A stretch of DNA of 64,000 bases from Escherichia coli (lineage in GTDB: Bacteria; Pseudomonadota; Gammaproteobacteria; Enterobacterales; Enterobacteriaceae): assembly GCF_013315695.1 (NCBI RefSeq), contig NZ_CP054353.1; one strand, given 5' to 3'. Under the pieces are notes generated by a model, which did no database searches, was not told the DNA's origin, and worked only from the letters and a program-made list of their open reading frames with translations. Shown here piece after piece: positions 12,307 through 64,000 of this stretch. Numbering within the stretch: the stretch's first letter is position 1; each line of letters begins with the position of its first letter. A program made the position numbers and the translations under genes.

Positions 12307-13509
12307 TTACCTGAACTGATAATGACCTTCGCCCAATCGAATAACCCTTCCCTCTTCTTCTGCGCGGTTCAGCCACACACTAATTTGTTCGATGGTTAAA
12401 CCAGTACAAGACGCCAGCCTTTCAATACTTATCGATTCCTTTGCAAGGATCGCCAGTTCCGCCACAAAGAGTTGATAAAAATCGACAGGCGTATGCGCGG
12501 GCATTACTGCGTAATTTGCGTCATCTTCATGCAGCGAAAACAGTTCTGGTTGAACGTTACGGAGTGCTTTGTCATACATCAGCCCAGGAACGTCTGGCAG
12601 TCTGATCGTCACATTCTCAGCCTGTTCAGCACTCCATGACGCCCCATTTTCTACTAATCGTGAATTGGCTGATTGCACATCCTGATTTGGTTTAACCAGA
12701 ACAGGCAGCCACTGATGTTTTAACGCCTCCATCGCTCCGGTTATCGTTCCACCGGTCATTCCCGCACGTACAACCATTGCGCTTTCAGCAAGGCAATAAA
12801 TATATTTATTCCGCGCCATTGCATTGCCGACGGTGAAACGTACCTCTGGGTAAAACGGTGAAATCAACACCAGGTTGCCTGCTATAAGCCCTTCACGCCA
12901 TTTCACTAACGTACTCGTTTTTAACAAGCTATCAGCTAATACGCCAACGGCAGTTCCCCCGGCCTCCAGTGCCGACGCCATTGCACATTCATCAATACCT
13001 CGCGCACCACCAGAGATAACGCAAATCCCCTGTTGGGCCAGTTTCGCTGCCAGTTGTTGGGTATAGCGCAAATCGGCAGTCGGAGCATCTCGCGAGCCAA
13101 CAATCGCCATACCTTCCGCTTGCAGTAATGCTTTATTCCCGCAGCCAAATAAAACGGGAGGTGCATCCGTTCGCAATCGGTTTTTCAAGCGAACGGGATA
13201 ATCGGCATCTCCGCGGGTTAAGATCCATAAACCGGCGCGTTGCCACTTATCTACCGCCAACGCCAGACTATGACCACGCGCCAGCAAGCCAAGAATACGC
13301 TCCTGAGAAATACGCGGATCGCTCCAGCCTGTAAGTTTCTCTTGCGGTTGCGGCACCAGAAGATCGGCGGGACTGATACGTTGGTGCTTCAGCCATAATG
13401 CAAACTTCCCCCATTCACTATTACTAAGAGGTTTATACTCACTCGCCGCCGCGCGAGAAAAATCGCTGGTTAGCAGGAGAGTTGCTTGTGCATTGGCTGA
13501 AAGATTCAT
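12307..13509 (-). CDS. DprA/Smf-like protein; putative partner (PsyrA/RqlI-like) of the upstream helicase
   Basis: 400 aa from ATG at 13509..13507 (the ORF-track start at 13602 lies inside the upstream gene). Rossmann motif VISGGARGIDECAMASAL typical of DprA, and a C-terminal winged-helix-like tail. Start shares one base with the upstream stop (TGATG). Confidence 0.75.
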   Translation of the reverse strand: MNLSANAQATLLLTSDFSRAAASEYKPLSNSEWGKFALWLKHQRISPADLLVPQPQEKLTGWSDPRISQERILGLLARGHSLALAVDKWQRAGLWILTRGDADYPVRLKNRLRTDAPPVLFGCGNKALLQAEGMAIVGSRDAPTADLRYTQQLAAKLAQQGICVISGGARGIDECAMASALEAGGTAVGVLADSLLKTSTLVKWREGLIAGNLVLISPFYPEVRFTVGNAMARNKYIYCLAESAMVVRAGMTGGTITGAMEALKHQWLPVLVKPNQDVQSANSRLVENGASWSAEQAENVTIRLPDVPGLMYDKALRNVQPELFSLHEDDANYAVMPAHTPVDFYQLFVAELAILAKESISIERLASCTGLTIEQISVWLNRAEEEGRVIRLGEGHYQFR

Positions 13510-15605
13510 CAATTTTTTACCGAGGTAGAAGCAAGGGCAAGAGGATAAACCGTCGGGCAACCTGCCTGGCGTAACAGTGCTGTCAGAACTGTCAGCGTCC
13601 ATGCAGAATCCACGATATCATCAACCAGCAACGCCGGACCTGGCATCAAAGGAGGGGTAATCACAAACGCCCCGTCGAGATTTTGACACTGGTGAAAACG
13701 GTTTTGCTGCATTTTCTGCGGTGGATTGTCCACGACTTTTTCAATGGCATCAATAAAAGGTAAGCCAAGTTTCGCCGCCAGTCGCCGGGCAAAATCAGGA
13801 ACCAGGTCGAGGTGCCTTAATGAAGGAACGCAGCATACCCAGGTTGGTTCAGGATGCGGATTCCAGCGTTGGCGAACCATTTCCGCACATGCTTCTACCA
13901 GCTCATCACTTAAGCGCCCCGTTTTTTTCTCCTGTGCTACCTGCTTTCCCCACCCGGAATCTCCCCAACGAGAAAGGATTCGCCCCGTAGATCCTTGTAA
14001 ACCCGCAGGCAAGTTCCCTTTAAATCCGTATTGCGTAAAAGCCCCAGCTGCCACCTGTTTATTGAGATTTAACGGCAGGTCAGCGTGTTTAATAAATAAA
14101 TTTGCCGCATGGAGTAAGCCGCTATCAATGTCGGGCGACAATAACGGATGCTGAAGACAACTGCTACATTTACCACAACGTTCGGCACTTGGCTCATCGA
14201 GTGCACGGCGCAGAAATTGCATTTTGCACTCCTTGGTCGTGATATAGCTTTCAACGTCTGCCAGTTCACTTTTTCTCTGATTCATCAAATGGTTAATTCG
14301 TTCATGATCAGGAGAAAAACTGACGATAGTTCTGCGCCATAATTTCTCGGTATACACCACAGGCGATGGATTTTCCGCTACCAATAATTTCAGTGCTTTT
14401 TCTATTTGCCCATAACGAAGATTCGTCCGTTGTTCAATGCCTCGTAGGGTAAGACCGTCATTCTCGCTAAGTACGTTGAGTATTTCATGAATTTGCGCCT
14501 CCGCAGGAAAGGCGCTTTCACGGAAGAATTGATGAATAGCGCGGTCTTCACCACCACAAAGCAATATGCCAACTGCGGAATCTATAGCACGCCCGGCACG
14601 CCCCACCTGTTGGTAGTAACCGACAATAGACCCCGGCATCTGATAATGAATGACGAAACCTAAATCAGGTTTATCAAACCCCATACCTAATGCCGTCGTC
14701 GCGACCAGCACTTTGATTTTATTTGCCAGCAGTGCCTGCTCCAGATATTCCCTGGCAGTATTAGAATCTTCCGCGCCTTCACAAGTCACGCCGCTGTAGT
14801 AAGCAAATGCACTGATACCATTTTTCCTTAACCACTCGGCGACAAGTTCAGCATCGCGAGTCGTCAGGGTATAAACAATTCCCGATTTGGAAAACTGAGG
14901 GATAACCGTTGCTAACCATGCCAGACGGGATGACTGTTCTCCTAAGACTAAGGCATCAAGCGCCAAACTTTCGCGAGCCAGCGTTCCACGCTGAATCACA
15001 ATGTCACCCAATTGCTGACGGATATCCTCAACAACACGGTTATTCGCTGTCGCGGTTGTACCCAGAACAGGGGTATTCGCAGGCAGTTGGCGCAAAATAT
15101 CTAATATACGTCGGTAATCCGGGCGAAAATCGTGGCCCCAATCAGAGATGCAGTGCGCCTCGTCGACCACAAGCAAGCCAATACGATCGGCTATAGGATA
15201 TAAAACCGTTTCGATAAAGTCCTGGTTTGCCAAACGTTCCGGGGAAACCAGCAAGCAATCGACCTCACCTTGCAGCAACTTATCGCTAATGCGCTGCCAT
15301 TCTTCCCTGTTTGTAGAATTCAACGTTTCAGCCGTAATACCTAACCGTTCAGCGGCGGCAACCTGGTTACGCATCAGGGCAAGCAAAGGAGAGATGATAA
15401 TTGTCGGGCCAGCGCCGCGATCGCGGAAGATTTTACTGGCGATGAAGTACACGGCACTTTTCCCCCAGCCGGTGCGCTGTACAACCAGCAGTTTTCGCCG
15501 CTGATTAACCACTGCATCTATGGCTTCCCATTGCCCTTCCCTGAAAGTAGCGGTGGTATTTCCTAACATCCGCTGTAAAAGCAATTCAGCTCCGTGCTTT
15601 TCCAT
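13509..15605 (-). CDS. RecQ-like DEAH helicase fused to a C-terminal ComF-type PRTase-like domain (PsyrT/RqlH-like)
   Basis: 698 aa. Helicase motifs TGWGKS, VVDEAHCISDWGHDFRPDY, LGTTATA, ATTALGMGFDKPD, YYQQVGRAGRA; CGKCSSC zinc-like motif; C-terminal segment with LLVDDIVDSAWT resembling the PRPP-binding loop of type-I PRTases. Confidence 0.8.
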   Translation of the reverse strand: MEKHGAELLLQRMLGNTTATFREGQWEAIDAVVNQRRKLLVVQRTGWGKSAVYFIASKIFRDRGAGPTIIISPLLALMRNQVAAAERLGITAETLNSTNREEWQRISDKLLQGEVDCLLVSPERLANQDFIETVLYPIADRIGLLVVDEAHCISDWGHDFRPDYRRILDILRQLPANTPVLGTTATANNRVVEDIRQQLGDIVIQRGTLARESLALDALVLGEQSSRLAWLATVIPQFSKSGIVYTLTTRDAELVAEWLRKNGISAFAYYSGVTCEGAEDSNTAREYLEQALLANKIKVLVATTALGMGFDKPDLGFVIHYQMPGSIVGYYQQVGRAGRAIDSAVGILLCGGEDRAIHQFFRESAFPAEAQIHEILNVLSENDGLTLRGIEQRTNLRYGQIEKALKLLVAENPSPVVYTEKLWRRTIVSFSPDHERINHLMNQRKSELADVESYITTKECKMQFLRRALDEPSAERCGKCSSCLQHPLLSPDIDSGLLHAANLFIKHADLPLNLNKQVAAGAFTQYGFKGNLPAGLQGSTGRILSRWGDSGWGKQVAQEKKTGRLSDELVEACAEMVRQRWNPHPEPTWVCCVPSLRHLDLVPDFARRLAAKLGLPFIDAIEKVVDNPPQKMQQNRFHQCQNLDGAFVITPPLMPGPALLVDDIVDSAWTLTVLTALLRQAGCPTVYPLALASTSVKN

Positions 15606-20829: not shown

Positions 20830-20950
20830 GATTTCGTCCTTATTAAGGTGGTTATTTACACCTTAGCGCAAAGCGGATGTGGTTCCTACTGGAGTGCGCA
20901 TAACGAACACAAGCACTCTCGTGGATAAATTGAGAACGAAAGATCAAAAA

Positions 20951-21040
20951 AAAAGCCAGCACCCGGCTGGCTAAGTAATACTGGAAGCAATGTGAGCAAT
21001 GTCGTGCTTTCAGGTTCTCCGCGAGGGTCTTCCTGATCGC
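20951..21040 (-). ncRNA. ryhB: RyhB small RNA (Fur-repressed, Hfq-dependent)
   Basis: Reverse complement of 20951..21040 reads GCGATCAGGAAGACCCTCGCGGAGAACCTGAAAGCACGACATTGCTCACATTGCTTCCAGTATTACTTAGCCAGCCGGGTGCTGGCTTTT, the RyhB sequence as I know it, ending in a GCCAGC/GCTGGC terminator hairpin and U-tract. ORF-track entries 20852..21100 and 21010..21225 across it are spurious. Confidence 0.9.
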
Positions 21041-21162: not shown

Positions 21163-21651
21163 ATGAGTGAGATAGTAATACGCCATGCTGAAACGCGGGA
21201 CTACGAGGCCATCAGGCAGATTCACGCCCAGCCGGAGGTGTATTGCAACACACTACAGGTGCCTCATCCTTCCGATTATATGTGGCAGGAGCGACTCGCC
21301 GATCGTCCCGGCATCAAGCAACTTGTCGCCTGTATTGATAGAGACGTCGTGGGCCATCTCACTATTGACGTGCAACAACGCCCACGCCGCAGTCATGTTG
21401 CCGATTTTGGTATCTGTGTCGACTCTCGCTGGAAGAACCGCGGCGTCGCCAGCGCCCTGATGCGCGAAATGATTGATATGTGCGACAACTGGTTGCGGGT
21501 AGATCGTATCGAGCTAACGGTGTTCGTCGATAACGCGCCAGCAATTAAGGTCTATAAAAAATTCGGCTTTAAGATTGAAGGGACTGGCAAAAAGTACGCA
21601 TTACGTAATGGTGAATATGTCGATGCGTATTATATGGCGCGGGTGAAGTAA
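21163..21651 (+). CDS. yhhY: GNAT-family N-acetyltransferase
   Basis: ORF track starts at TTG 21070; ATG at 21163 with AAGGA RBS gives the 162-aa protein MSEIVIRHAETRDYEAIRQIH... Confidence 0.9.
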   Translation: MSEIVIRHAETRDYEAIRQIHAQPEVYCNTLQVPHPSDYMWQERLADRPGIKQLVACIDRDVVGHLTIDVQQRPRRSHVADFGICVDSRWKNRGVASALMREMIDMCDNWLRVDRIELTVFVDNAPAIKVYKKFGFKIEGTGKKYALRNGEYVDAYYMARVK

Positions 21652-21886
21652 GATAGTGCCCTTTTTCTGAGATGGAAAAAGGGCGTCATTCAAAATCGGC
21701 ATATCTTCCTTTAATGTATTTATTTGCCCAATAAATATATTGAGATTTACCTCATAATTACGTCCTAAAGTGTAATATTTTATTATTAATATATACGCCT
21801 ACAATTTCCTGGAGTAAATAAATAACAATTAACAAGCATAATAGTGCCATTAATAAAATAGCATGCCATAAAAGGACTTTTCAGGG

Positions 21887-23065
21887 ATGAGTAATATTGT
21901 TTACCTGACAGTAACGGGAGAACAACAAGGAAGCATCTCCGCAGGTTGTGGGACTTCTGAGTCTACAGGTAATCGCTGGCAGAGCGGGCATGAGGATGAA
22001 ATATTTACATTCTCACTCTTAAATAGTATTACTAATACGGGGCTTGGTTCACAGTTCCATGGTATAACATTTTGTAAATTAATTGATAAAAGCACTCCAT
22101 TATTTATTAATTCCATTAACAATAATGAACAATTATTTATGGGATTTGACTTCTATCGAATAAATAGATTTGGTAGATGGGAAAAGTATTATTATATACA
22201 ACTAAGAGGCGCTTTTTTATCGGCTATTCATCATCAGATCATTGAAAATCAACTGGATACAGAAACAATAACTGTTAGTTATGAATTTATCCTCTGTCAA
22301 CATATTATCGCAAATACCGAGTTCAGCTATTTGGCACTCCCTGAAAATTATAACTGTTTGTTTTTACCAAATTCAAAAAACCAAACAAATAATCGTTTCA
22401 AAACGTTAAACAGCAAAGCTATTGGCAGGCTACTTGCTGCTGGTGGCGTATACAATGGGAACATTGAAGGATTCAGAGATACTGCGGAAAAACTGGGTGG
22501 AGATGCAATAAAAGGCTATGATCAAATACTAAATGAAAAAACAGCGGGCATAGCGATAGCAACAGCATCTATTCTTTTAACAAAGCGTTCTAATGTTGAT
22601 ACATATACAGAAATAAATAGTTACTTAGGCAAACTTAGAGGTCAACAAAAACTTCTTGATGGTATAGACATAATAGAAATAATATACATTAAGAGACCTT
22701 CAAAAGACTTAGCTAACTTACGAAAGGAGTTTAATAAAACTGTAAGAAAAAATTTTCTTATCAAACTTACAAAAACCTCCGAAGCATCTGGAAGATTCAA
22801 CGCCGAAGACCTTTTAAGAATGAGAAAGGGCAATGTTCCTCTAAATTATAATGTTCACCATAAACTATCTCTAGATGATGGTGGTACTAATGATTTCGAA
22901 AATTTAGTATTAATCGAAAACGAACCATATCATAAAGTTTTTACTAACATGCAATCACGAATAGCTAAGGGAATATTAGTAGGTGAAAGCAAAATCACTC
23001 CCTGGGCCATTCCATCTGGCTCAATTTATCCTCCCATGAAAAATATTATGGAACCCACAAAATGA
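21887..23065 (+). CDS. yhhZ: Hcp-family (T6SS tube-like) protein with C-terminal HNH-type nuclease motif; orphan Hcp-toxin fusion
   Basis: 392 aa; Hcp-like N-terminus MSNIVYLTVTGEQQGSISAGCGTSESTGNRWQSGHEDEIFTF; C-terminal NYNVHHKLSLDDGGTNDFENLVLIENEPYHKVF (HH..N..H pattern); AT-rich codon usage. Confidence 0.85.
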   Translation: MSNIVYLTVTGEQQGSISAGCGTSESTGNRWQSGHEDEIFTFSLLNSITNTGLGSQFHGITFCKLIDKSTPLFINSINNNEQLFMGFDFYRINRFGRWEKYYYIQLRGAFLSAIHHQIIENQLDTETITVSYEFILCQHIIANTEFSYLALPENYNCLFLPNSKNQTNNRFKTLNSKAIGRLLAAGGVYNGNIEGFRDTAEKLGGDAIKGYDQILNEKTAGIAIATASILLTKRSNVDTYTEINSYLGKLRGQQKLLDGIDIIEIIYIKRPSKDLANLRKEFNKTVRKNFLIKLTKTSEASGRFNAEDLLRMRKGNVPLNYNVHHKLSLDDGGTNDFENLVLIENEPYHKVFTNMQSRIAKGILVGESKITPWAIPSGSIYPPMKNIMEPTK

Positions 23066-23556
23066 TGACTAAAACCCAAATAAATAAATTAAAAAAAATG
23101 ATGAATGATTTAGACTATCCATTTGAAGCACCGCTCAAGGAATCATTTATTGAAAGTATAATCCAAATAAAATTTAATTCTAATTCAACTAATTGCCTGG
23201 AGAAGTTATGTAATGAAGTTAGTATTCTCTTTAATAATCAACCTGATTATCTTACTTTTTTAAGAGCAATGGATGGATTCGAAGTTAATGGATTACGATT
23301 ATTCAGCCTCTCGATTCCAGAACCTTCAGTTAAAAACCTTTTTGCCGTAAATGAATTTTATAGAAATAATGATGATTTCATAAACCCTGATCTACAAGAA
23401 CGGTTAGTGATCGGGGATGATAGCATTTCAATATTTACTTATGACATTAAAAATAACTTTTTTGAAATTAGAGATAATATTGGCACAGAAAATATATTCA
23501 GTTCGTTTAGTGATTTCTCTTCATTCTTAAACGAAATCATGGACAGTTGTTCATAA
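23062..23556 (+). CDS. yrhA: Hypothetical protein, candidate immunity protein for the YhhZ nuclease
   Basis: 164-aa ORF whose ATG overlaps the yhhZ stop (ATGA); AT-rich; immunity role inferred from arrangement only. Confidence 0.65.
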   Translation: MMTKTQINKLKKMMNDLDYPFEAPLKESFIESIIQIKFNSNSTNCLEKLCNEVSILFNNQPDYLTFLRAMDGFEVNGLRLFSLSIPEPSVKNLFAVNEFYRNNDDFINPDLQERLVIGDDSISIFTYDIKNNFFEIRDNIGTENIFSSFSDFSSFLNEIMDSCS

Positions 23557-24005
23557 TAATCAAAAGGTAACAAAAATCATTATAAACCATGCCATCTTTT
23601 TAGAGATTACCAGCAGAAAATTCCTTGTTCGAAACTTAGCAATGCAAGCTATGGAAAAACTTACAACGGAACTACACTCCTTAAGTGAGATGGACCGAAG
23701 ACATGTAATCTCTATTTTAGCCGAAATAGCTAATGGCTATGATGATTTTAGTGACATGTTGATTTAGTTAGAATTTCACCCGAATCATAAGATTCTGATA
23801 TCTTAAATAAGAAAATCCCGTTCGACGTTCTGAAAAAGAAATCACAAAACATTAGCAGATACTTATTTCGTGACTGTATATTATCCGATGAACTTTTTTC
23901 AAAACCAGCATTTAATAATATCTTTGACGAAGATGAACGCGTCTTTTCTCAAAGTATAACGCAAGAATAATAATATAACGATCAACAATAATATTTATTA
24001 TAATT

Positions 24006-24290
24006 ATGATTACTTATCACGACGCATTCGCGAAAGCGAACCATTACCTTGATGATGCAGATCTCGCCGTCATCATTACTCTACATGGACGCTTTAGCCA
24101 GGGCTGGTATTTCTGTTTCGAAGCACGAGAATTTCTCGAAACTGGTGATGAGGCCGCGCGTTTAGCCGGTAACGCACCTTTTATTATTGATAAAGACAGT
24201 GGTGAAATTCATTCCCTTGGAACGGCAAAGCCGCTGGAAGAATATCTACAGGATTATGAAATAAAAAAGGCTACCTTCGGCTTGCCCTGA
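24006..24290 (+). CDS. yrhB: YrhB-family small protein (reported heat-stable chaperone-like protein)
   Basis: 94-aa ORF MITYHDAFAKANHYLDDADLAVIITLHGRFSQGWYFCFEAREFLETGDEAARLAGNAPFIIDKDSGEIHSLG..., recognised as YrhB. Confidence 0.8.
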   Translation: MITYHDAFAKANHYLDDADLAVIITLHGRFSQGWYFCFEAREFLETGDEAARLAGNAPFIIDKDSGEIHSLGTAKPLEEYLQDYEIKKATFGLP

Positions 24291-24296
24291 CAATAC

Positions 24297-24320
24297 GGCC
24301 CTCTTCCCACGAAGAGGGCC
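24297..24320. terminator. Bidirectional terminator hairpin between convergent yrhB and ggt
   Basis: Perfect 10-bp stem GGCCCTCTTC-CCAC-GAAGAGGGCC between the two stops. Confidence 0.6.
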
Positions 24321-24327
24321 GCTAACC

Positions 24328-26061
24328 TTAATACCCCGCCGTTAAATCATCTACTGAGCGCGGGTCGGATGCGCCGTACAACTCACCGTCAGGCCCAACC
24401 ATAATGCTTTGTGTACTGCCCATCGCCTCTTTCAGCACTACTTTCTGACCTTTTGCTTCCAGCAGCTTGAGCGTATCCGGGCTAAATCCTTTCTCGACAC
24501 GCAGCTCGTCCGGCAACCACTGATGGTGGAAACGCGGTGCATTGGTCGCTTCGGCGACATTCATACCATAATCGATGCTATTCACCACCATTTGCAGCAC
24601 GGTAGTGATGATCCGGCTACCGCCTGGGCTACCAGTCACTAACCAGGTTTTACCGTCTTTCACCACAATGGTTGGTGACATCGACGACAGCGGGCGTTTA
24701 TTCGGCCCGACCGCGTTGGCGTCACCACCCACCAGCCCGTAAACGTTCGGTACGCCAGGTTTGGCGGAGAAATCATCCATCTGGTTATTGAGCAAAATAC
24801 CGCTCTCGCCCGCGACAATGCCCGTCCCGAAGGTGGTGTTCAGCGTATAGGTCACCGCCACCGCGTTACCGTCTTTATCCACCACTGAGTAATGGGTAGT
24901 TTGATTACTCTCATAAGGCGCAAGCTTGCCGGGGCGAATTTCGCTGGATGGCTTCGCTTTATTGATATCGATTTGATCGGCAATAGATTTGGCATAGGCT
25001 TTATTGGTCAGCGCCTGCCACGGTACTTTGACAAAATCCGGGTCGCCAAGATATTCCGAGCGGTCGGCATAGGCGTATTTCTCAGCTTCTGCCATGATTT
25101 GCATCGCGTCGGCGCTGCCAAAGCCGTACTTCTGCATATCGAAGTTTTCCAGAATATTGAGGATTTGTACGATATGGATCCCGCCGGAGGATGGCGGTGG
25201 CATGGAGTAAACCTGATACCCGCGATAATCGCCGCTTATCGGTGTGCGTTCGACCGCTTTATATGCCGCTAAATCTTCTTTGCTGATCAAGCCACCGTTT
25301 TTCTGCATCTCCTGGGCAATCTGTTCCGCTATCGTGCCTTTGTAGAATTCATCCGGGCCGTTTTCGGCAATCATCTCCAGGCTCTTTGCCAGGTTCGCCT
25401 GCACCAGCTTGTCGCCCTTTTTCAGCGGTTCGCCCTCTTTCCAGAAGATAGCTTTGCTGTTTTCGTGGTTCAGCAGCACTTCACTGCCGTAGGTTTTGAG
25501 ATCGTCAGCCAGCGCGTCGTTAACGATAAAACCATCGCGTGCCAGTTTAAACGCCGGTTGCACCACTTTATTCAACGGCATGGTGCCGTATTTATCCAGC
25601 GCCAACGAGAAACCCGCTACCGTACCGGGTGTGCCGGAAGCCAGATGCGAAGTGAGTGATTTTTTGCTGTCCGGGTTGCCCTGATCATCGAGGAACATAT
25701 CGCGGGTCGCTTTGGCGGGTGCCATTTCGCGGAAATCGATAGCCGTGGTATTGCCATTTTTCGAGCGGATCAGCATAAAACCACCGCCGCCCAGATTCCC
25801 TGCCTGCGGATGCGTTACTGCCAGCGCGTAGCCCACCGCCACGGCAGCATCAACGGCATTCCCGCCCTCCTTTAGAATATCTACCCCCACTTGGGTGGCA
25901 GTGGCATCGACAGACGCCACCATCCCCTGTTTCGCGCGTACCGGATGGAAGACATCTTCCTCCACACCATAAGAAACAGGAGGCGCGGCTACCGTACTAA
26001 AACAACTTCCTGTGAGCAGAGCAGCAATGGCCACCCGGCGTAAAAACGTCGGTTTTATCAT
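24328..26061 (-). CDS. ggt: Gamma-glutamyltranspeptidase
   Basis: ORF track starts 9 codons upstream; ATG at 26061 gives MIKPTFLRRVAIAALL... with a signal peptide; catalytic-threonine region TTHYSVVDKDGNAVAVTYTLN. Confidence 0.95.
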   Translation of the reverse strand: MIKPTFLRRVAIAALLTGSCFSTVAAPPVSYGVEEDVFHPVRAKQGMVASVDATATQVGVDILKEGGNAVDAAVAVGYALAVTHPQAGNLGGGGFMLIRSKNGNTTAIDFREMAPAKATRDMFLDDQGNPDSKKSLTSHLASGTPGTVAGFSLALDKYGTMPLNKVVQPAFKLARDGFIVNDALADDLKTYGSEVLLNHENSKAIFWKEGEPLKKGDKLVQANLAKSLEMIAENGPDEFYKGTIAEQIAQEMQKNGGLISKEDLAAYKAVERTPISGDYRGYQVYSMPPPSSGGIHIVQILNILENFDMQKYGFGSADAMQIMAEAEKYAYADRSEYLGDPDFVKVPWQALTNKAYAKSIADQIDINKAKPSSEIRPGKLAPYESNQTTHYSVVDKDGNAVAVTYTLNTTFGTGIVAGESGILLNNQMDDFSAKPGVPNVYGLVGGDANAVGPNKRPLSSMSPTIVVKDGKTWLVTGSPGGSRIITTVLQMVVNSIDYGMNVAEATNAPRFHHQWLPDELRVEKGFSPDTLKLLEAKGQKVVLKEAMGSTQSIMVGPDGELYGASDPRSVDDLTAGY

Positions 26062-31922: not shown

Positions 31923-32669
31923 TCATTGCACCACACTCTGCTTCAGCCGTTCATTGGCGGTCTTAATCCATTCCCGGTGGTGTTTTCTATAATGTGGTTT
32001 TGAACGTTTAGCCGTATCAACCACAGCAATATACTGCTCGTTGGCTTCACGTAACCGACTCATTTTCGCCAACATTTCCGCATAGTAAATACGTGCCTGC
32101 GGGCCGGGGTAATAAGAAACAAGCACCTCAAACTCACTTTCCGCATCAGCGTATTTTTCTTGTGCGGCTAACGCTCTGGCAAATAACAAATGCCCGTCTG
32201 CCGACTGAAAATCGGGGTTATAACGCATCACATCTTCCAGCGTCTGCTGACAGGCGGCGAACTCCTGAATAGCAAATTGCACCTGCGCCAGGCTTAACAT
32301 CATTACCGCTTCATGGGCGAAAATTCCGCTTAACGCCTGCTGATAATGGGGAACGGCTTCGTGATAACGCCCAAGGCGCGCCAGTTCGTTAGCTAACGCA
32401 TAATGGTTTTGATTAGTCTCGGCAATCGCCAGCTCTTCGGTTAATTTGTGCAGGTGGCGTTCCGGGCTGATTTTGTCCTGCAGGCGCATCAGCAAAGTAC
32501 GCCCGTGACGGTCAGCGCCCGTTTCAGGCAGCATGACCATGACGAAATACGCCACGCAGCCAATCACCGGAAAACAGAAGATAATAAAAATCCAGTATCG
32601 CTCTTGTCCGGAGCGATAAGCGTGAATACAGCAAAGCAGTTCAAGCATGACGACAACGGCATAATGCAT
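31923..32669 (-). CDS. Hypothetical membrane-anchored protein: PLDc_N-like two-helix N-terminus plus TPR-like repeat domain
   Basis: 248 aa. N-terminus HAYRSGQERYWIFIIFCFPVIGCVAYFVMVMLPE resembles the PLD-superfamily N-terminal membrane domain (compare cardiolipin synthase N-terminus); the rest is helical-repeat-like. I do not recall a gene between ugpB and livF in K-12. Confidence 0.7.
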   Translation of the reverse strand: MHYAVVVMLELLCCIHAYRSGQERYWIFIIFCFPVIGCVAYFVMVMLPETGADRHGRTLLMRLQDKISPERHLHKLTEELAIAETNQNHYALANELARLGRYHEAVPHYQQALSGIFAHEAVMMLSLAQVQFAIQEFAACQQTLEDVMRYNPDFQSADGHLLFARALAAQEKYADAESEFEVLVSYYPGPQARIYYAEMLAKMSRLREANEQYIAVVDTAKRSKPHYRKHHREWIKTANERLKQSVVQ

Positions 32670-56274: not shown

Positions 56275-59078
<2,804 letters not shown>

Positions 59079-59228
59079 CACCTACCCACGCGCCGTTATT
59101 TCCTGACGGCGCAGTAAATTCCTGCCAAATATCGACTCACGTCACATTTTTTTGATCACGATTTGGTCCCTCAAAATGTGAGACGCTTCGATCCTCTTTT
59201 TCTCCCGTTCACCTACTATACGCTTGAA

Positions 59229-59254
59229 GTTGTCCATGATTGTCCATAGACAAC
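59229..59254 (+). promoter_or_regulatory. Candidate operator dyad upstream of the HutC-type regulator / PTS cluster
   Basis: GTTGTCCATG-N6-CATAGACAAC (arms match 9 of 10), 20-45 nt upstream of the regulator start; contains the GT..AC core common in GntR/HutC operators. Confidence 0.4.
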
Positions 59255-59276
59255 TGTAAATGTTCAGGTGCGCGCC

Positions 59277-60023
59277 ATGAAATCATTAAGTAAGTCGTCA
59301 CAAATACCGCTCTATCAACAAGTGGTGGAGTGGATAAGAGAAAGTATTTATACCGGGGATCTGGTGGAAGACGATCGCATTCCTTCGGAATACCAGATTA
59401 TGGATATGCTGGAAGTGAGTCGGGGAACCGTTAAAAAAGCGGTCGCCCAACTGGTAAAAGAAGGCGTGTTGATTCAGGTCCAGGGGAAGGGAACTTTTGT
59501 CAAAAAAGAGAACGTGGCATATCCGTTAGGTGAAGGATTATTGTCATTCGCGGAATCGCTGGAAAGCCAGAAAATACATTTTACCACTGAAGTTATTACG
59601 TCACGGATTGAACCGGCTAATCGTTATGTGGCAGAGAAATTAAGAATAACGCCCGGTCAGGATATTCTTTACCTTGAGCGTTTACGTTCAATTGGTGATG
59701 AAAAAGCGATGCTGATAGAGAACCGTATCAATATTGAGCTATGCCCCGGCATCGTGGAAATCGATTTTAATCAACATAATTTATTTCCAACAATAGAAAG
59801 TTTGTCGCAAAGAAAAATTCGTTACTCGGAAAGTCGCTATGCCGCGCGATTAATTGGTAATGAACGCGGTCATTTTTTAGATATCAGTGAAGATGCACCC
59901 GTTTTGCATCTGGAGCAGTTAGTCTTTTTCTCCCGAGAGTTACCCGTTGAGTTTGGCAACGTCTGGTTAAAAGGAAATAAATATTATCTGGGCACCGTGC
60001 TGCAACGGCGGGAAGTGAGTTAA
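59277..60023 (+). CDS. GntR/HutC-family transcriptional regulator (HTH plus UTRA-type effector domain)
   Basis: ATG at 59277 with AGGTG RBS (ORF track starts at GTG 59268); N-terminal HTH LVEDDRIPSEYQIMDMLEVSRGTVKKAVAQLVKEG. Confidence 0.8.
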   Translation: MKSLSKSSQIPLYQQVVEWIRESIYTGDLVEDDRIPSEYQIMDMLEVSRGTVKKAVAQLVKEGVLIQVQGKGTFVKKENVAYPLGEGLLSFAESLESQKIHFTTEVITSRIEPANRYVAEKLRITPGQDILYLERLRSIGDEKAMLIENRINIELCPGIVEIDFNQHNLFPTIESLSQRKIRYSESRYAARLIGNERGHFLDISEDAPVLHLEQLVFFSRELPVEFGNVWLKGNKYYLGTVLQRREVS

Positions 60024-60047
60024 ATACACTTTTTTATGAGGAATAAA

Positions 60048-60521
60048 ATGCAAGGCATACAGTTTCAGGAAAATTATATTCAACGACTTCCGGCAGGGTT
60101 AAGCGTTGAACAGATCATCCGTCAGTTAGCGCAACCGTTGGTTGCTGCTGAGCTGGTGGTCCCTGATTTTGCCAATCACGTACTGAAACGTGAGGCGACG
60201 TACCCAACGGGGCTGCCTACCGAACCACCGTGCGTCGCCATTCCGCACACGGACCATAAACATGTCCGGCACAATGCAATTGCCGTCGGTATTTTGCCAG
60301 AGCCGGTAGAGTTTGCCGATATGGGCGGCGACCCTGATCCCGTACCTGTCAGGGTGATTTTTTTGCTCGCCTTAAGTGAAAGTAATAAACAATTAAATGC
60401 CCTGGGCTGGATTATGGAGATGATTCAGGATACGCCCTTTATGCGCGCCCTGCTTACGATGGAAACAACAGAAATACACACAGTAATCTTAAACAAAATG
60501 AATGAACGAGGTGAAATATGA
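60048..60521 (+). CDS. PTS EIIA component, galactitol-type (EIIA-2 fold)
   Basis: ATG at 60048 with GAGGA RBS; phospho-His region CVAIPHTDHKHV; overall similar to GatA-type EIIA. Confidence 0.8.
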   Translation: MQGIQFQENYIQRLPAGLSVEQIIRQLAQPLVAAELVVPDFANHVLKREATYPTGLPTEPPCVAIPHTDHKHVRHNAIAVGILPEPVEFADMGGDPDPVPVRVIFLLALSESNKQLNALGWIMEMIQDTPFMRALLTMETTEIHTVILNKMNERGEI

Positions 60522-60799
60522 GTCAAACCATTTTATTTGTCTGCGCCACAGGTATTGCCACATCCACGGCGGTAACAGAAAAAGTCATGGAGTATTGCAA
60601 AGAGCACGGCCTTAACGTCAATTATTCCCAAACCAACGTTGCCTCTTTACCCGGTAATACCGACGGCGTAGCGCTGGTTGTTTCAACGACTAAAGTGCCT
60701 TATGAACTCGACGTCCCGGTAGTTAACGGCTTGCCGATTATTACCGGTATTGGCGAAGAGAAAGTACTGGCGCAAATTGTTTCGATTCTTAAAAAGTAA
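60518..60799 (+). CDS. PTS EIIB component, galactitol-type
   Basis: 93-aa ORF with phospho-Cys motif ILFVCATGIATS near the N-terminus; ATGA overlap with the EIIA gene. Confidence 0.8.
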   Translation: MSQTILFVCATGIATSTAVTEKVMEYCKEHGLNVNYSQTNVASLPGNTDGVALVVSTTKVPYELDVPVVNGLPIITGIGEEKVLAQIVSILKK

Positions 60800-60872
60800 T
60801 TAATAATTAATTCCAACCCACTCCATCAGGCGCTAACGCGAGGTGCGCTCTCGCCTGAAAAAGAGGTTTATT

Positions 60873-62231
60873 ATGAACGATATCGCGCATACCCTCTATA
60901 ATATTGTGCAATATATATTGGGATTTGGCCCCACGGTAATGTTGCCGTTGGTGTTATTTATTCTTGCTCTCTGTTTTAAAGTAAAACCCGCTAAAGCCTT
61001 ACGCTCGTCATTAACAGTCGGCATTGGTTTTGTCGGTATTTATGCCATTTTCGATATTCTTACCAGCAATGTCGGGCCAGCGGCCCAGGCGATGGTTGAA
61101 CGCACCGGAATTAATTTACCGGTGGTGGATTTAGGCTGGCCGCCGCTTTCCGCTATTACATGGGGTTCGCCAATTGCCCCGTTTGTTATTCCCCTGACCA
61201 TTCTGATTAATGTCGCAATGCTGGCGTTAAATAAAACCCGCACCGTTGATGTAGATATGTGGAACTACTGGCATTTTGCCCTTGCCGGTACGCTGGTTTA
61301 TTACAGCACCGGCAGCCTATTCTTTGGTTTGCTGGCGGCCGCGATTGCCGCAGTGGTGGTGCTAAAACTCGCCGACTGGTCTGCGCCACTGGTACAAAAA
61401 TACTTTGGCCTGGAAGGGATCTCATTGCCGACGCTCTCTTCGGTGGTGTTCTTCCCGGTCGGTCTGCTGGTCGACAAAATCATCGACCATATCCCTGGCC
61501 TCAATCGTATTCATATCGACCCGGAAACCGTACAGAAAAAGTTTGGCATCTTCGGCGAACCGATGATGGTTGGCACTATTCTGGGCATTCTGCTCGGCGT
61601 AATTGCCGGATACGATTTCAAAAAAGTCTTGCTGCTTGGCATCAGCATTGGCGGTGTGATGTTCATCCTGCCACGCATGGTTCGCATCCTGATGGAAGGT
61701 TTATTACCGCTGTCTGAAGCCATTAAAAAGTATCTCAATGCCAAATACCCTGACCGTGACGATCTCTATATAGGACTGGATATCGCCGTTGCCGTAGGTA
61801 ACCCGGCGATTATCTCCACCGCCCTGCTGCTGACGCCAATCTCGGTCTTTATCGCGTTTGTCCTCCCAGGTAATGAAGTCCTGCCGCTTGGCGACCTTGC
61901 CAACCTGGCGGTAATGGCGTCGATGATTGCTTTAGCCAGCCGTGGCAATATTTTCCGCACCGTTCTGGCGGCGATCCCGGTGATTATTGCCGACCTGTGG
62001 ATTGCCACTAAAATCGCGCCGTTTATTACCGGAATGGCGAAAGACGTTAACTTCAAATTTGCCGAAGGCTCCAGCGGCCAGGTTTCCAGTTTCCTTGATG
62101 GCGGTAACCCGTTCCGCTTCTGGCTGCTGGAAATCTTCAACGGCAATCTCATCGCCATTGGTCTGGTGCCGGTTATCGCCCTGATACTGTATGGCATTTT
62201 CCGAATGACGCGGAGCACGGTTTATGCCTGA
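60873..62231 (+). CDS. PTS EIIC permease, galactitol (Gat) family
   Basis: ATG at 60873 with AGAGG RBS (ORF track starts at GTG 60843); conserved blocks GPTVMLP, GIGFVGI, VDLGWPP, GEP, GNIFRT shared with GatC-type EIIC. Confidence 0.8.
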   Translation: MNDIAHTLYNIVQYILGFGPTVMLPLVLFILALCFKVKPAKALRSSLTVGIGFVGIYAIFDILTSNVGPAAQAMVERTGINLPVVDLGWPPLSAITWGSPIAPFVIPLTILINVAMLALNKTRTVDVDMWNYWHFALAGTLVYYSTGSLFFGLLAAAIAAVVVLKLADWSAPLVQKYFGLEGISLPTLSSVVFFPVGLLVDKIIDHIPGLNRIHIDPETVQKKFGIFGEPMMVGTILGILLGVIAGYDFKKVLLLGISIGGVMFILPRMVRILMEGLLPLSEAIKKYLNAKYPDRDDLYIGLDIAVAVGNPAIISTALLLTPISVFIAFVLPGNEVLPLGDLANLAVMASMIALASRGNIFRTVLAAIPVIIADLWIATKIAPFITGMAKDVNFKFAEGSSGQVSSFLDGGNPFRFWLLEIFNGNLIAIGLVPVIALILYGIFRMTRSTVYA

Positions 62232-63732
62232 TAACAGCGCAGCTATCGTTATCGATATTGGCACCACCAATTGCAAAGTCACCTGCTTTTCCTGCCTGGA
62301 TGCAACGACGTTGGGCGCGCATAAATTCGTGACGGCAAAACAGATCTCCCCACAGGGCGATGTCGATTTCGATATCGACGTCCTCTGGCAGGAGGTCCGC
62401 CAGGCAATAGCGCAACTGAGCGCCGCTTCGCCGCTGCCGGTCAGGCGGATAAGCATTGCCAGTTTTGGCGAGTCAGGGGTGTTTCTTGACGAGCATGGCG
62501 AGATCCTGACGCCAATGCTGGCATGGTATGACCGCCGCGGTGAAGAGTACCTGGCAACGCTTAGTGAGGCAGACAGTGCGGCGCTTTATGACATCTGCGG
62601 GCTACCGCTGCACAGCAATTACTCTGCCTTCAAAATGCGTTGGTTGCTGGAGCATTATCCACTGCGTAATCGCCGCGGCCTGCGTTGGCTACATGCGCCG
62701 GAAGTACTGCTCTGGCGGCTGACTGGCGAACAGCGTACGGATATCACCTTAGCCAGCCGTACGCTGTGTCTGGACGTGCGTAAAGGCGAATGGTCAGCGA
62801 AAGCGGCGGCGTTGTTACACGTTCCCTGTTCAGCATTTGCGCCATTGGTGCAGCCAGGCGAGCACGCCGGATGGGTCAGCGAGTCGCTCTGCAAAACGCT
62901 TGGGTTCTTGCAACCGGTCAGCGTGACGCTGGCCGGGCATGACCATATGGTGGGTGCGCGGGCGTTGCAGATGACGCCGGGCGATATCCTTAACTCGACG
63001 GGCACCACAGAAGGCATTCTGCAACTGGATACACAACCGACGCTGGATGAACAGGCCAAACGTGACAAGCTGGCAAACGGCTGTTATTCGCTTGCAAACC
63101 AGTTCACCCTGTTTGCGTCGCTGCCGGTGGGCGGTTTCGCTCTGGAGTGGCTGCGCAACACGTTCCGGCTAACCGATGAGGAGATCGCCGCATCACTTAC
63201 TCGCGGACATGCGGATTACCTGGCGGGGAACTGGTCGCTCGATGACATTCCCGTTTTTATTCCGCATCTTCGCGGTTCGGGTTCGCCCTATAAAAATCGC
63301 CATACCCGAGGATTATTTTATGGGCTTGGCGATACGTTAAATATCGATATGTTAATTGCCAGCGTCTCACTGGGATTAACCATGGAATTTGCCAACTGCT
63401 TCGCCTGTTTTAATGTGCCCGGCACCAGCGCGTTAAAAGTGATAGGTCCGGCAACCCATAATCCCCTTTGGCTGCAATTAAAGGCGGATATTTTACAGCG
63501 TCCGGTTGAAGCAATTGCATTTAACGAGGCGGTTTCTGTCGGAGCATTATTAACCGCCGCACCGGATATTCCACCGCCGCAAGTCACCATAGCCCAACGT
63601 TTGTTACCGAATCGGGCGAGATACCATCAATTACAGCGTTATCAGCACAAATGGAAAAGCTGGTATCAGTTGAAATTACAGCAAGAAGGCGTGATGCCAT
63701 TACATCATCGGGAGGAGCACTATGTTGAGTAA
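62224..63732 (+). CDS. FGGY-family carbohydrate kinase (rhamnulokinase/fuculokinase-like)
   Basis: 502-aa ORF; N-terminal phosphate-binding loop AIVIDIGTTNCKV and the FGGY second motif region AGHDHMVGA; overlaps the EIIC stop by 8 nt. Confidence 0.75.
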   Translation: MPDNSAAIVIDIGTTNCKVTCFSCLDATTLGAHKFVTAKQISPQGDVDFDIDVLWQEVRQAIAQLSAASPLPVRRISIASFGESGVFLDEHGEILTPMLAWYDRRGEEYLATLSEADSAALYDICGLPLHSNYSAFKMRWLLEHYPLRNRRGLRWLHAPEVLLWRLTGEQRTDITLASRTLCLDVRKGEWSAKAAALLHVPCSAFAPLVQPGEHAGWVSESLCKTLGFLQPVSVTLAGHDHMVGARALQMTPGDILNSTGTTEGILQLDTQPTLDEQAKRDKLANGCYSLANQFTLFASLPVGGFALEWLRNTFRLTDEEIAASLTRGHADYLAGNWSLDDIPVFIPHLRGSGSPYKNRHTRGLFYGLGDTLNIDMLIASVSLGLTMEFANCFACFNVPGTSALKVIGPATHNPLWLQLKADILQRPVEAIAFNEAVSVGALLTAAPDIPPPQVTIAQRLLPNRARYHQLQRYQHKWKSWYQLKLQQEGVMPLHHREEHYVE

Positions 63733-63991
63733 AACCGTGGAGGTCAGAAACAGTACTGGCCTGCATGCACGTCCGGCGGCCTGTCTGGCGAAAGCCGCCA
63801 AAAAATATAGCTGTAAAGTGACGCTGCATTATGAAGGTAATGATATTAATGCCACCAGCATGATGAATATTATGCGCGCCGGAATAAAAGGCGGAAAAAC
63901 GGTGGAAATACGCTGCGAAGGTGATGATGAAAACGAGGCAATACAAACTCTCACTACCTTATTTCGCGACCGCTTCGGTGAAGCTGAATAA
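63722..63991 (+). CDS. HPr-like phosphocarrier protein
   Basis: 89-aa ORF with the HPr active-site context NSTGLHARPAA (phospho-His); overlaps the kinase 3' end by 11 nt. Confidence 0.75.
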   Translation: MLSKTVEVRNSTGLHARPAACLAKAAKKYSCKVTLHYEGNDINATSMMNIMRAGIKGGKTVEIRCEGDDENEAIQTLTTLFRDRFGEAE

Positions 63992-64000
63992 TTAACTGAT

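Follow-up and report, generated by a model that had tools for sequence, protein, structure and literature searches.

The DNA analysed here is a window of 64,000 nucleotides of Escherichia coli (contig NZ_CP054353.1), and the subject is the AT-rich islet between yhhY and ggt in which yhhZ and yrhA, a candidate effector gene of a type VI secretion system (T6SS) and its immunity gene, are located. In K-12 the window corresponds to the map interval glgP–asd–gntRKU–yhhWXY–yhhZ–yrhA–yrhD–yrhB–ggt–ugp–liv–rpoH–ftsYEX–nik, where yrhA is split by the insertion sequence IS1E at the same locus; yrhA is intact in the window. The window is present at 100% identity in the chromosome (NZ_OZ547117.1) of AF3, a blood-culture isolate of E. 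coli from the UK, and genome-level tests were made on AF3, whose nearest relatives at the yhhY–ggt locus are IAI39 and CE10. The islet and the two genes were delimited as follows.

21652–24327, no strand: variable, AT-rich islet (alignment to the empty-site genome EC07; G+C content 0.337)
21887–23065, + strand: yhhZ (annotated tssD), 392 aa, specialised T6SS effector of the Hcp-ET1 type (intact open reading frame (ORF); C227-11 orthologue)
21887–22327, + strand: Hcp/TssD tube domain of YhhZ, residues 1–147 (TIGR03344, Pfam, solved structures)
22328–22576, + strand: linker (pre-toxin) region kept across homologues, residues 148–230, at the end of which toxin tips are exchanged (alignment with homologues bearing other C-termini)
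22577–23062, + strand: predicted C-terminal toxin domain, residues 231–392, an HNH (ββα-Me) DNase resembling those of colicins, core at 22847–22942 (motif, fold, profile)
23062–23556, + strand: yrhA, 164 aa, cognate immunity gene (ETI1 orthologue) with a SUKH fold (ORF, fold, synteny)

The Hcp–HNH effector and its immunity protein

Alignment with EC07, an E. coli genome in which the site is empty, placed the end of homology at 21651, the yhhY stop, and its resumption at 24328, the 3' end of ggt. The variable stretch of 2,676 bp occupies the entire yhhY–ggt intergenic space and is replaced in the empty allele by 61 bp. Its G+C content of 0.337 was compared with that of 560 other 2,676-bp windows in the same 64 kb (0.529 ± 0.024, minimum 0.461) and lies about 8 standard deviations under their mean; the values for single genes are 0.34 (yhhZ), 0.285 (yrhA), and 0.45 (yrhB). 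An earlier sequence-only reading of this DNA had described an AT-rich islet at 21660–24000, and the composition agrees; the true extent is about 330 bp longer on the right. That reading named yhhZ and yrhA correctly but missed that the islet continues to ggt, with the Imm35 gene yrhB and two degraded genes. The islet was also considered as a mobile element, and this was rejected: direct repeats, an integrase, and att-like ends are lacking, and alleles differ across the whole intergenic space.

Residues 1–147 of YhhZ were matched by the NCBIfam model TIGR03344 with 117.9 bits (cut-off 58.9). YhhZ was also matched by Pfam T6SS_HCP (PF05638; 8.8e-11) and by solved Hcp structures at 1e-11 to 1e-9, namely 3he1 (Hcp3; 1.8e-11), 6a2v, and 5mxn, and the N-terminal Hcp/TssD domain that defines an Hcp-ET protein is therefore present. 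The linker at residues 148–230 is conserved to the same degree as the Hcp domain in all relatives. The conserved stretch (…GRLLAAGG.YNGN..GFR.TAEKLG…ASI) breaks off near residue 228–230, and at the DNA level homology with a C. freundii Hcp-X gene stops at 22506 of the window.

The tip from residue 231 onward has the features of an HNH-type nuclease domain, catalytic residues included. Its HH…N…H motif is invariant in homologues down to 51% identity, its predicted fold matches active HNH nucleases and toxins, and a profile of the tip family reaches the DNase sequences of pyocin S2 and colicin E7 (about 1e-3), the 65–79 matched residues taking in the segment N-terminal to the HNH core. The tests are each modest, and jointly they agree on a probable HNH nuclease, as far as sequence and predicted structure can tell. 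The Hcp–HNH fusion proposed in the sequence-only reading is thus upheld, and the profile search for Hcp and HNH families that it recommended gave the Hcp matches above and, for Pfam HNH, only E = 0.013 over 22 residues.

In the motif of YhhZ, as read from the sequence, there is no counterpart to the fourth histidine of colicin E9 (H131). This absence and the short Pfam match are what would be expected of a structural Hcp with a dead tip, in which the 'HNH' is degenerate and without nuclease activity and YrhA is an unrelated neighbour; the invariant motif, the fold, and the profile ties to colicin and pyocin DNases all argue against such a protein. An early paper (2009) did describe YhhZ as an 'evolved Hcp' and called its HNH domain degenerate, but a systematic classification of His-Me finger proteins places YhhZ as a nuclease group, DNase toxicity has been reported for the orthologue (secondary sources), and YrhA, with its immunity fold, varies in step with the toxin tip. 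A dead tip is accordingly regarded as very improbable.

The two genes overlap at 23062–23065 (ATGA), where the ATG of yrhA overlaps the TGA of yhhZ, as had been read from the sequence, and yrhA is probably translationally coupled to yhhZ. An immunity gene directly 3' of the toxin is a consistent arrangement, since YrhA-family proteins were found behind HNH tips at 7 loci. YrhA matches the NCBIfam 'YrhA family' (NF038335), a narrow enterobacterial family, and is not matched by Pfam SUKH models; direct sequence searches of Pfam and PDB returned noise (antibody heavy chains, NPC1_N). By fold comparison it has the SUKH (SMI1/KNR4) α+β immunity fold. A profile built from 17 members of the YrhA family detected about 115 relatives among 1.8 billion representatives, and when 28 of the profile relatives (42–18% identical to YrhA) were scanned, 10 matched PF09346 (SMI1_KNR4, SUKH-1) at E ≤ 0.001 and 18 at E ≤ 0.1. 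Some near homologues of YrhA carry the UniRef name SMI1/KNR4. SUKH proteins are the typical partners of nuclease toxins in immunity.

Three database proteins of 552–556 aa are in-frame fusions of YhhZ and YrhA. The 556-aa fusions were rejected as a real architecture because a +1 frameshift in the C-run four codons 5' of the yhhZ stop (23050–23065) accounts for them, and as each has just 1–2 records they are probably errors or rare mutants. A further database protein is a 348-aa allele of YhhZ with a 44-residue in-frame deletion within the toxin tip.

For the Hcp-ET1 described by Ma et al. 2017, a review table gives the locus tag AAF13_24945, from the O104:H4 strain C227-11. In that strain AAF13_RS24950 (tssD, 392 aa) and AAF13_RS24945 (yrhA) sit between yhhY and yrhD–yrhB–ggt, so that the flanking genes are alike. 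YhhZ is identical to its orthologue at 382 of 392 residues (97%) and YrhA is also 97% identical; the toxin differs by 10 substitutions and the immunity protein by 5, all outside the HNH motif. The review and a preprint of 2024 attribute killing by Hcp-ET1 to an HNH-DNase activity, and state that ETI1 neutralises it and that delivery requires T6SS2 and not T6SS1. Because of the 97% identity and the shared locus with a pair of reported activity, the yhhZ–yrhA finding is regarded as already known: it is the same module as the described Hcp-ET1/ETI1 (STEC004, C227-11, and 55989; Ma et al. 2017, via secondary sources), with the same site, an Hcp plus an HNH DNase, and an overlapping immunity gene. 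The effector/immunity pair of the sequence-only reading stands on the same orthology, on the SUKH fold, and on the position of YrhA, which is always behind HNH tips; its prior characterisation had been missed.

Taken as a whole, the locus is very likely a polymorphic T6SS effector–immunity module of the Hcp-ET1/ETI1 type with a downstream archive of immunity genes, probably undeliverable in AF3. From what secondary sources report for the orthologue, the Hcp part would join the inner tube of the T6SS and be fired into a neighbouring bacterium, where the HNH nuclease would degrade the DNA of the target cell. ETI1, the orthologue of YrhA, would neutralise the nuclease, and delivery would depend on T6SS2.

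The module can be set apart from other nuclease toxins by its carrier and its immunity protein. Colicins E7 and E9 and pyocins S2 and AP41 use receptor-binding and translocation domains, whereas YhhZ has an Hcp tube domain; the colicin immunity proteins of the Im7/Im9 type are 85-aa four-helix proteins, whereas YrhA is a 164-aa SUKH α+β protein; and the extra C-terminal histidine of the colicins is not evident in YhhZ. Rhs2-CT/RhsI2 of Serratia marcescens and other Rhs/PAAR HNH toxins are carried in an Rhs cage on a VgrG/PAAR spike, unlike YhhZ, whose carrier is the Hcp inner tube. A search with the toxin tip only, limited by its word index, found it in Hcp-linked or short fragment proteins and never on Rhs, CdiA, or PAAR carriers. 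Compared with YobL–YobK of Bacillus subtilis, which also belongs to the SUKH superfamily, YrhA is too diverged for the Pfam SUKH models. Usp/Hcp-ET3-4 of uropathogenic E. coli resembles YhhZ in joining an Hcp domain to a nuclease bacteriocin domain at the C-terminus and in having more than one immunity gene behind it, but it has pyocin S3 and colicin DNase domains, lies at another locus, and is followed by three Imu immunity genes.

Probable exchange of toxin tips and immunity genes

Three features lie between yrhA and ggt.

23651–23803, + strand: yrhD remnant, a small ORF with a TAG at 23765–23767 (tblastn with K-12 YrhD, 92% identity, 51 codons)
23809–23967, + strand: degraded orphan immunity-like gene without a start codon and with a premature stop (tblastn to a C. 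freundii 86-aa protein)
24006–24290, + strand: yrhB, intact orphan Imm35 immunity gene, 94 aa (Pfam Imm35)

RefSeq treats yrhD as a pseudogene in AF3 and in two more of the five strains compared. The degraded gene at 23809–23967 corresponds to residues 2–54 of an 86-aa C. freundii protein (47% identity, tblastn E 1.3e-12), the gene of which is located directly 3' of a different Hcp toxin of 417 aa. YrhB matched the whole length of Pfam Imm35 (PF15567; 9.7e-23) and shares 70–72% identity with Imm35 proteins of Citrobacter; a PDB sequence search with YrhB gave no match. The dN/dS (ratio of nonsynonymous to synonymous substitution rates) of yrhB against strains of phylogroups A and B1 is 0.06. 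In Citrobacter the natural partner of Imm35 at this locus would be an Hcp–glutamine-deamidase toxin. Since Imm35 is paired there with an Hcp–Gln_amidase protein, and no Gln_amidase toxin was found in the window, adjacent to yrhB or elsewhere, YrhB is an orphan in the window. We infer that the DNA 3' of yrhA is an archive of immunity genes from earlier or alternative toxin tips. In this it would differ from the Usp locus, where the extra immunity genes are reported to be duplicates of the cognate gene; the extra genes of the yhhZ islet belong to other toxin types.

Database relatives of YhhZ are 65–76% identical to it over the first ~230 residues and diverge completely thereafter, their alternative C-termini being Gln_amidase (PF15644), Colicin_D (PF11429), PF21814, or unannotated tips. 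The yhhY–ggt gap holds related Hcp toxins in other genomes as well: in C. koseri, in C. freundii, in one more Citrobacter contig, and in three contigs from metagenomic or read assemblies. The following combinations of tip and immunity gene were observed.

HNH tip: 164–171-aa YrhA-family protein directly 3' (the window, C227-11, and five further loci of Citrobacter or metagenomes)
Gln_amidase tip: Imm35, overlapping the toxin gene (Citrobacter contig L016, same yhhY–ggt site)
Colicin_D tip: Colicin_immun (a different locus)
417-aa toxin type: 86-aa protein (C. freundii)

In one strain of C. freundii the genes for an HNH toxin, YrhA, an 85-aa protein, Imm35, and an 83-aa protein follow one another in series. 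In five cross-genus pairs the tip (62 to 43% identity) and YrhA (65 to 43%) diverge in parallel and faster than the N-terminus (78 to 70%). Because Citrobacter and further Enterobacteriaceae have related Hcp toxins in this position, yhhY–ggt is considered an old, recurrently exchanged locus and not the target of a one-off insertion. Horizontal acquisition, as proposed from the sequence alone, thus holds insofar as the islet is present or absent within E. coli and has a low synonymous divergence, and needs to be recast with regard to the single event that it implied. Three Citrobacter loci, L016 among them, have an extra gene in the gap between yhhY and the Hcp gene, encoding a 294-aa protein with a signal-peptide-like N-terminus and without a Pfam match, which E. 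coli does not have.

Among complete E. coli genomes, 3,757 of 5,426 (69%) have the islet region with at least 80% coverage. The remaining 31% have an empty site, a gene for a DUF4225 protein, or yrhB alone. In E. coli MA11 (locus L013, positions 1963–2874) a DUF4225-domain gene of 303 aa was found at the yhhY–ggt site together with about 700 bp of other AT-rich DNA. Five E. coli alleles were compared for synonymous divergence (dS) and dN/dS, with the following ranges; substitutions are few, and the extreme AT bias may affect dS.

yhhZ: dS 0.004–0.058, dN/dS 0.3–0.9
yrhA: dS 0–0.057, dN/dS 0.13–0.57
yhhY (flank): dS 0.12–0.28, dN/dS 0.02–0.2
ggt (flank): dS 0.04–0.23, dN/dS about 0.03

In the more distant pairs the synonymous divergence of the islet is 4–20x below that of the flanks. 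This fits a spread of the cassette across lineages later than the divergence of the flanks, under weak or mixed selection. Between AF3 and C227-11, the 3' half of yhhY (21400–21600) and much of ggt (24600–26000) are up to 8.5–9% diverged per 200 bp, compared with 1–4% further out from the islet and just 0–2.5% in yhhZ. The pattern suggests recombination breakpoints at the edges of the islet.

These comparisons can be extended to a fuller scenario, which is put forward tentatively and to which we give somewhat less than an even chance. The site would be an old one of cross-genus exchange in which tips and immunity genes are swapped at about residue 230, and each swap would leave the previous immunity gene behind. 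YrhB would then be an orphan Imm35 against a Citrobacter-like Hcp–glutamine-deamidase, and the HNH/YrhA cassette would have spread recently across phylogroups, serving mainly as a shield in strains that lack a T6SS.

Delivery, selection, and alternative roles

No T6SS genes other than yhhZ are present in the public annotation of the whole 64-kb window. In O157 Sakai the T6SS2 cluster is located at the aspV site, and a preprint states that most Shiga toxin-producing E. coli have T6SS2 at aspV; in AF3 the aspV site is empty, the tRNA-Asp gene being followed directly by yafV. The AF3 chromosome was also searched by megablast with a chimeric query that consisted of 6.5 kb of the window and the tssC genes of Sakai (aspV type) and CFT073 (metV type). 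AF3 was matched in a single place, the window, and neither tssC gave a match in the chromosome; the search did not extend to plasmids, to the third T6SS type of E. coli, or to clusters of high divergence. The T6SS reported to deliver Hcp-ET1, T6SS2, was therefore not found in the same genome, as far as these two types are concerned, and AF3 differs in this from the strains in which Hcp-ET1/ETI1 was described. In C227-11, the first 46 kb of the pheU island were found to be without T6SS genes. Given the empty aspV site and the lack of a close tssC of the two types, the toxin of AF3 probably cannot be delivered, judging from the genome sequence. Most likely the module is retained because it shields the strain from kin that fire Hcp-ET1, or else it is drifting towards loss. 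The claim that the pair is stranded without a T6SS, made for the window from sequence alone, is sustained and extends to the AF3 chromosome within the range of the search. Beside the empty aspV site, AF3 has a complete second flagellar cluster (Flag-2, with the lateral flagellin gene lafA) at chromosome positions 4,684,926–4,718,000.

Several observations count against a functional Hcp-ET1 module at this locus. The DNase toxicity of Hcp-ET1, its neutralisation by ETI1, and its dependence on T6SS2 are known through secondary accounts only, and the tag given in the review, AAF13_24945, falls in the numbering of RefSeq on yrhA, the neighbour of the Hcp gene. The preprint reports no killing of E. 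coli DH5α by the T6SS2 of an O157:H7 strain, with which antibacterial delivery by T6SS2 sits awkwardly. K-12 has kept an intact yhhZ although IS1E splits its yrhA, so that either the toxin is silent or does no harm intracellularly, or what is left of YrhA remains functional. A structure prediction of fused YhhZ–YrhA reached a predicted template-modelling score (pTM) of 0.52, at which the relative placement of the two proteins is unreliable and permits no conclusion on an interface. In one allele yhhZ is interrupted by a stop at codon 267 and yrhA is intact; this and the yhhZ dN/dS of 0.3–0.9 suggest that constraint on the toxin is weak.

Weak constraint would also be found if the locus were a decaying relic, the toxin gene being functionless in a lineage without a T6SS and drifting to loss, with selection keeping at most the immunity genes. 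For yhhZ the dN/dS is 0.8–0.9 against strains of phylogroups A and B1 and falls to 0.3–0.5 against two further strains, whereas flanking genes have 0.02–0.2; the 9–22 nonsynonymous changes behind these ratios are, however, too few to separate neutrality from weak purifying or diversifying selection. The absence of the islet from 31% of complete genomes, the IS1 in yrhA of K-12, a spontaneous ΔyhhZ–yrhA deletion reported in laboratory K-12 mutants, and the failure of either tssC to match in AF3 point the same way, and yet yhhZ of AF3 is an intact ORF with all catalytic residues present and only 10 residues different from C227-11. Decay is considered unlikely on balance, though it is the likeliest of the alternatives; it concerns only the present use of the locus and is compatible with its identity as Hcp-ET1.

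HNH nucleases and SUKH-type inhibitors occur in defence systems. The module might act independently of a T6SS, either inside the cell, as a nuclease that resembles a toxin–antitoxin pair or counters phage by abortive infection, or through release of YhhZ along another route, and it does occur in strains without a T6SS (K-12 according to a review, and AF3 for the two types tested). This is judged improbable. No PADLOC defence model matched YhhZ, YrhA, the yrhD ORF, or YrhB at E ≤ 0.01, and the anti-phage reading was rejected for that reason. The Hcp domain is complete and better conserved than the tip (78% vs 62%), as expected if incorporation into the tube matters, and secondary sources report T6SS2-dependent delivery. 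K-12, in which yrhA is disrupted and the toxin gene is nonetheless intact, also speaks against an addiction module. The Hcp-ET1/ETI1 effector–immunity module thus remains the preferred interpretation.

Neighbouring features and annotation of the locus

Two further features of the islet were noted on reading the sequence.

21652–21886, + strand: AT-rich leader 5' of yhhZ, with a 10-bp hairpin at 21658–21684 directly past yhhY
24297–24320, no strand: GC-rich hairpin GGCCCTCTTC-CCAC-GAAGAGGGCC in the yrhB/ggt gap

The GC-rich hairpin is probably the ggt terminator and common to the DUF4225 allele, whose homology with the window picks up again at 24292. A scan for consensus promoters and terminators gave 11 matches, with 12.2 expected in shuffled sequence, and no promoter is claimed. 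In a paper on K-12, two yhhZ promoters were placed in the leader region, without a terminator ahead of IS1E.

The small RNA RyhB (Rfam RF00057, 83.1 bits) is encoded at 20947–21011 on the - strand in the yhhX/yhhY gap, just 5' of the islet. A DprA-like gene and a RecQ-family helicase gene, mutually overlapping, are located at 12307–15605 on the - strand in the yhgN/gntU gap; yhgN and gntU are adjacent in C227-11, and the two genes look like a small strain-specific insertion, possibly a defence pair. Another small variable site is the ugpB/livF gap, which holds a gene for a tetratricopeptide-repeat protein (31923–32669, - strand) in the window, is empty in C227-11, and holds a Fic/Phd toxin–antitoxin pair in C. 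koseri. Past nikR, at about 59000–64000 on the + strand, are genes for a GntR-family regulator, IIA, IIB, and IIC components of a phosphotransferase system (galactitol type), an FGGY kinase, and HPr.

The annotation of the locus can be corrected. The genes listed as 'tssD' and 'protein YrhA' are better described as an Hcp-ET1 DNase effector and a SUKH-type immunity protein, and yrhB, long annotated as a heat-shock chaperone, as an orphan Imm35 immunity gene and not a chaperone. The main comparative value of the locus is that the same site in several genera holds Hcp proteins with interchangeable tips and a trail of kept immunity genes. It is a natural system in which to ask why undeliverable toxins and 'foreign' immunity genes persist, and how the exchange of toxin tips works.

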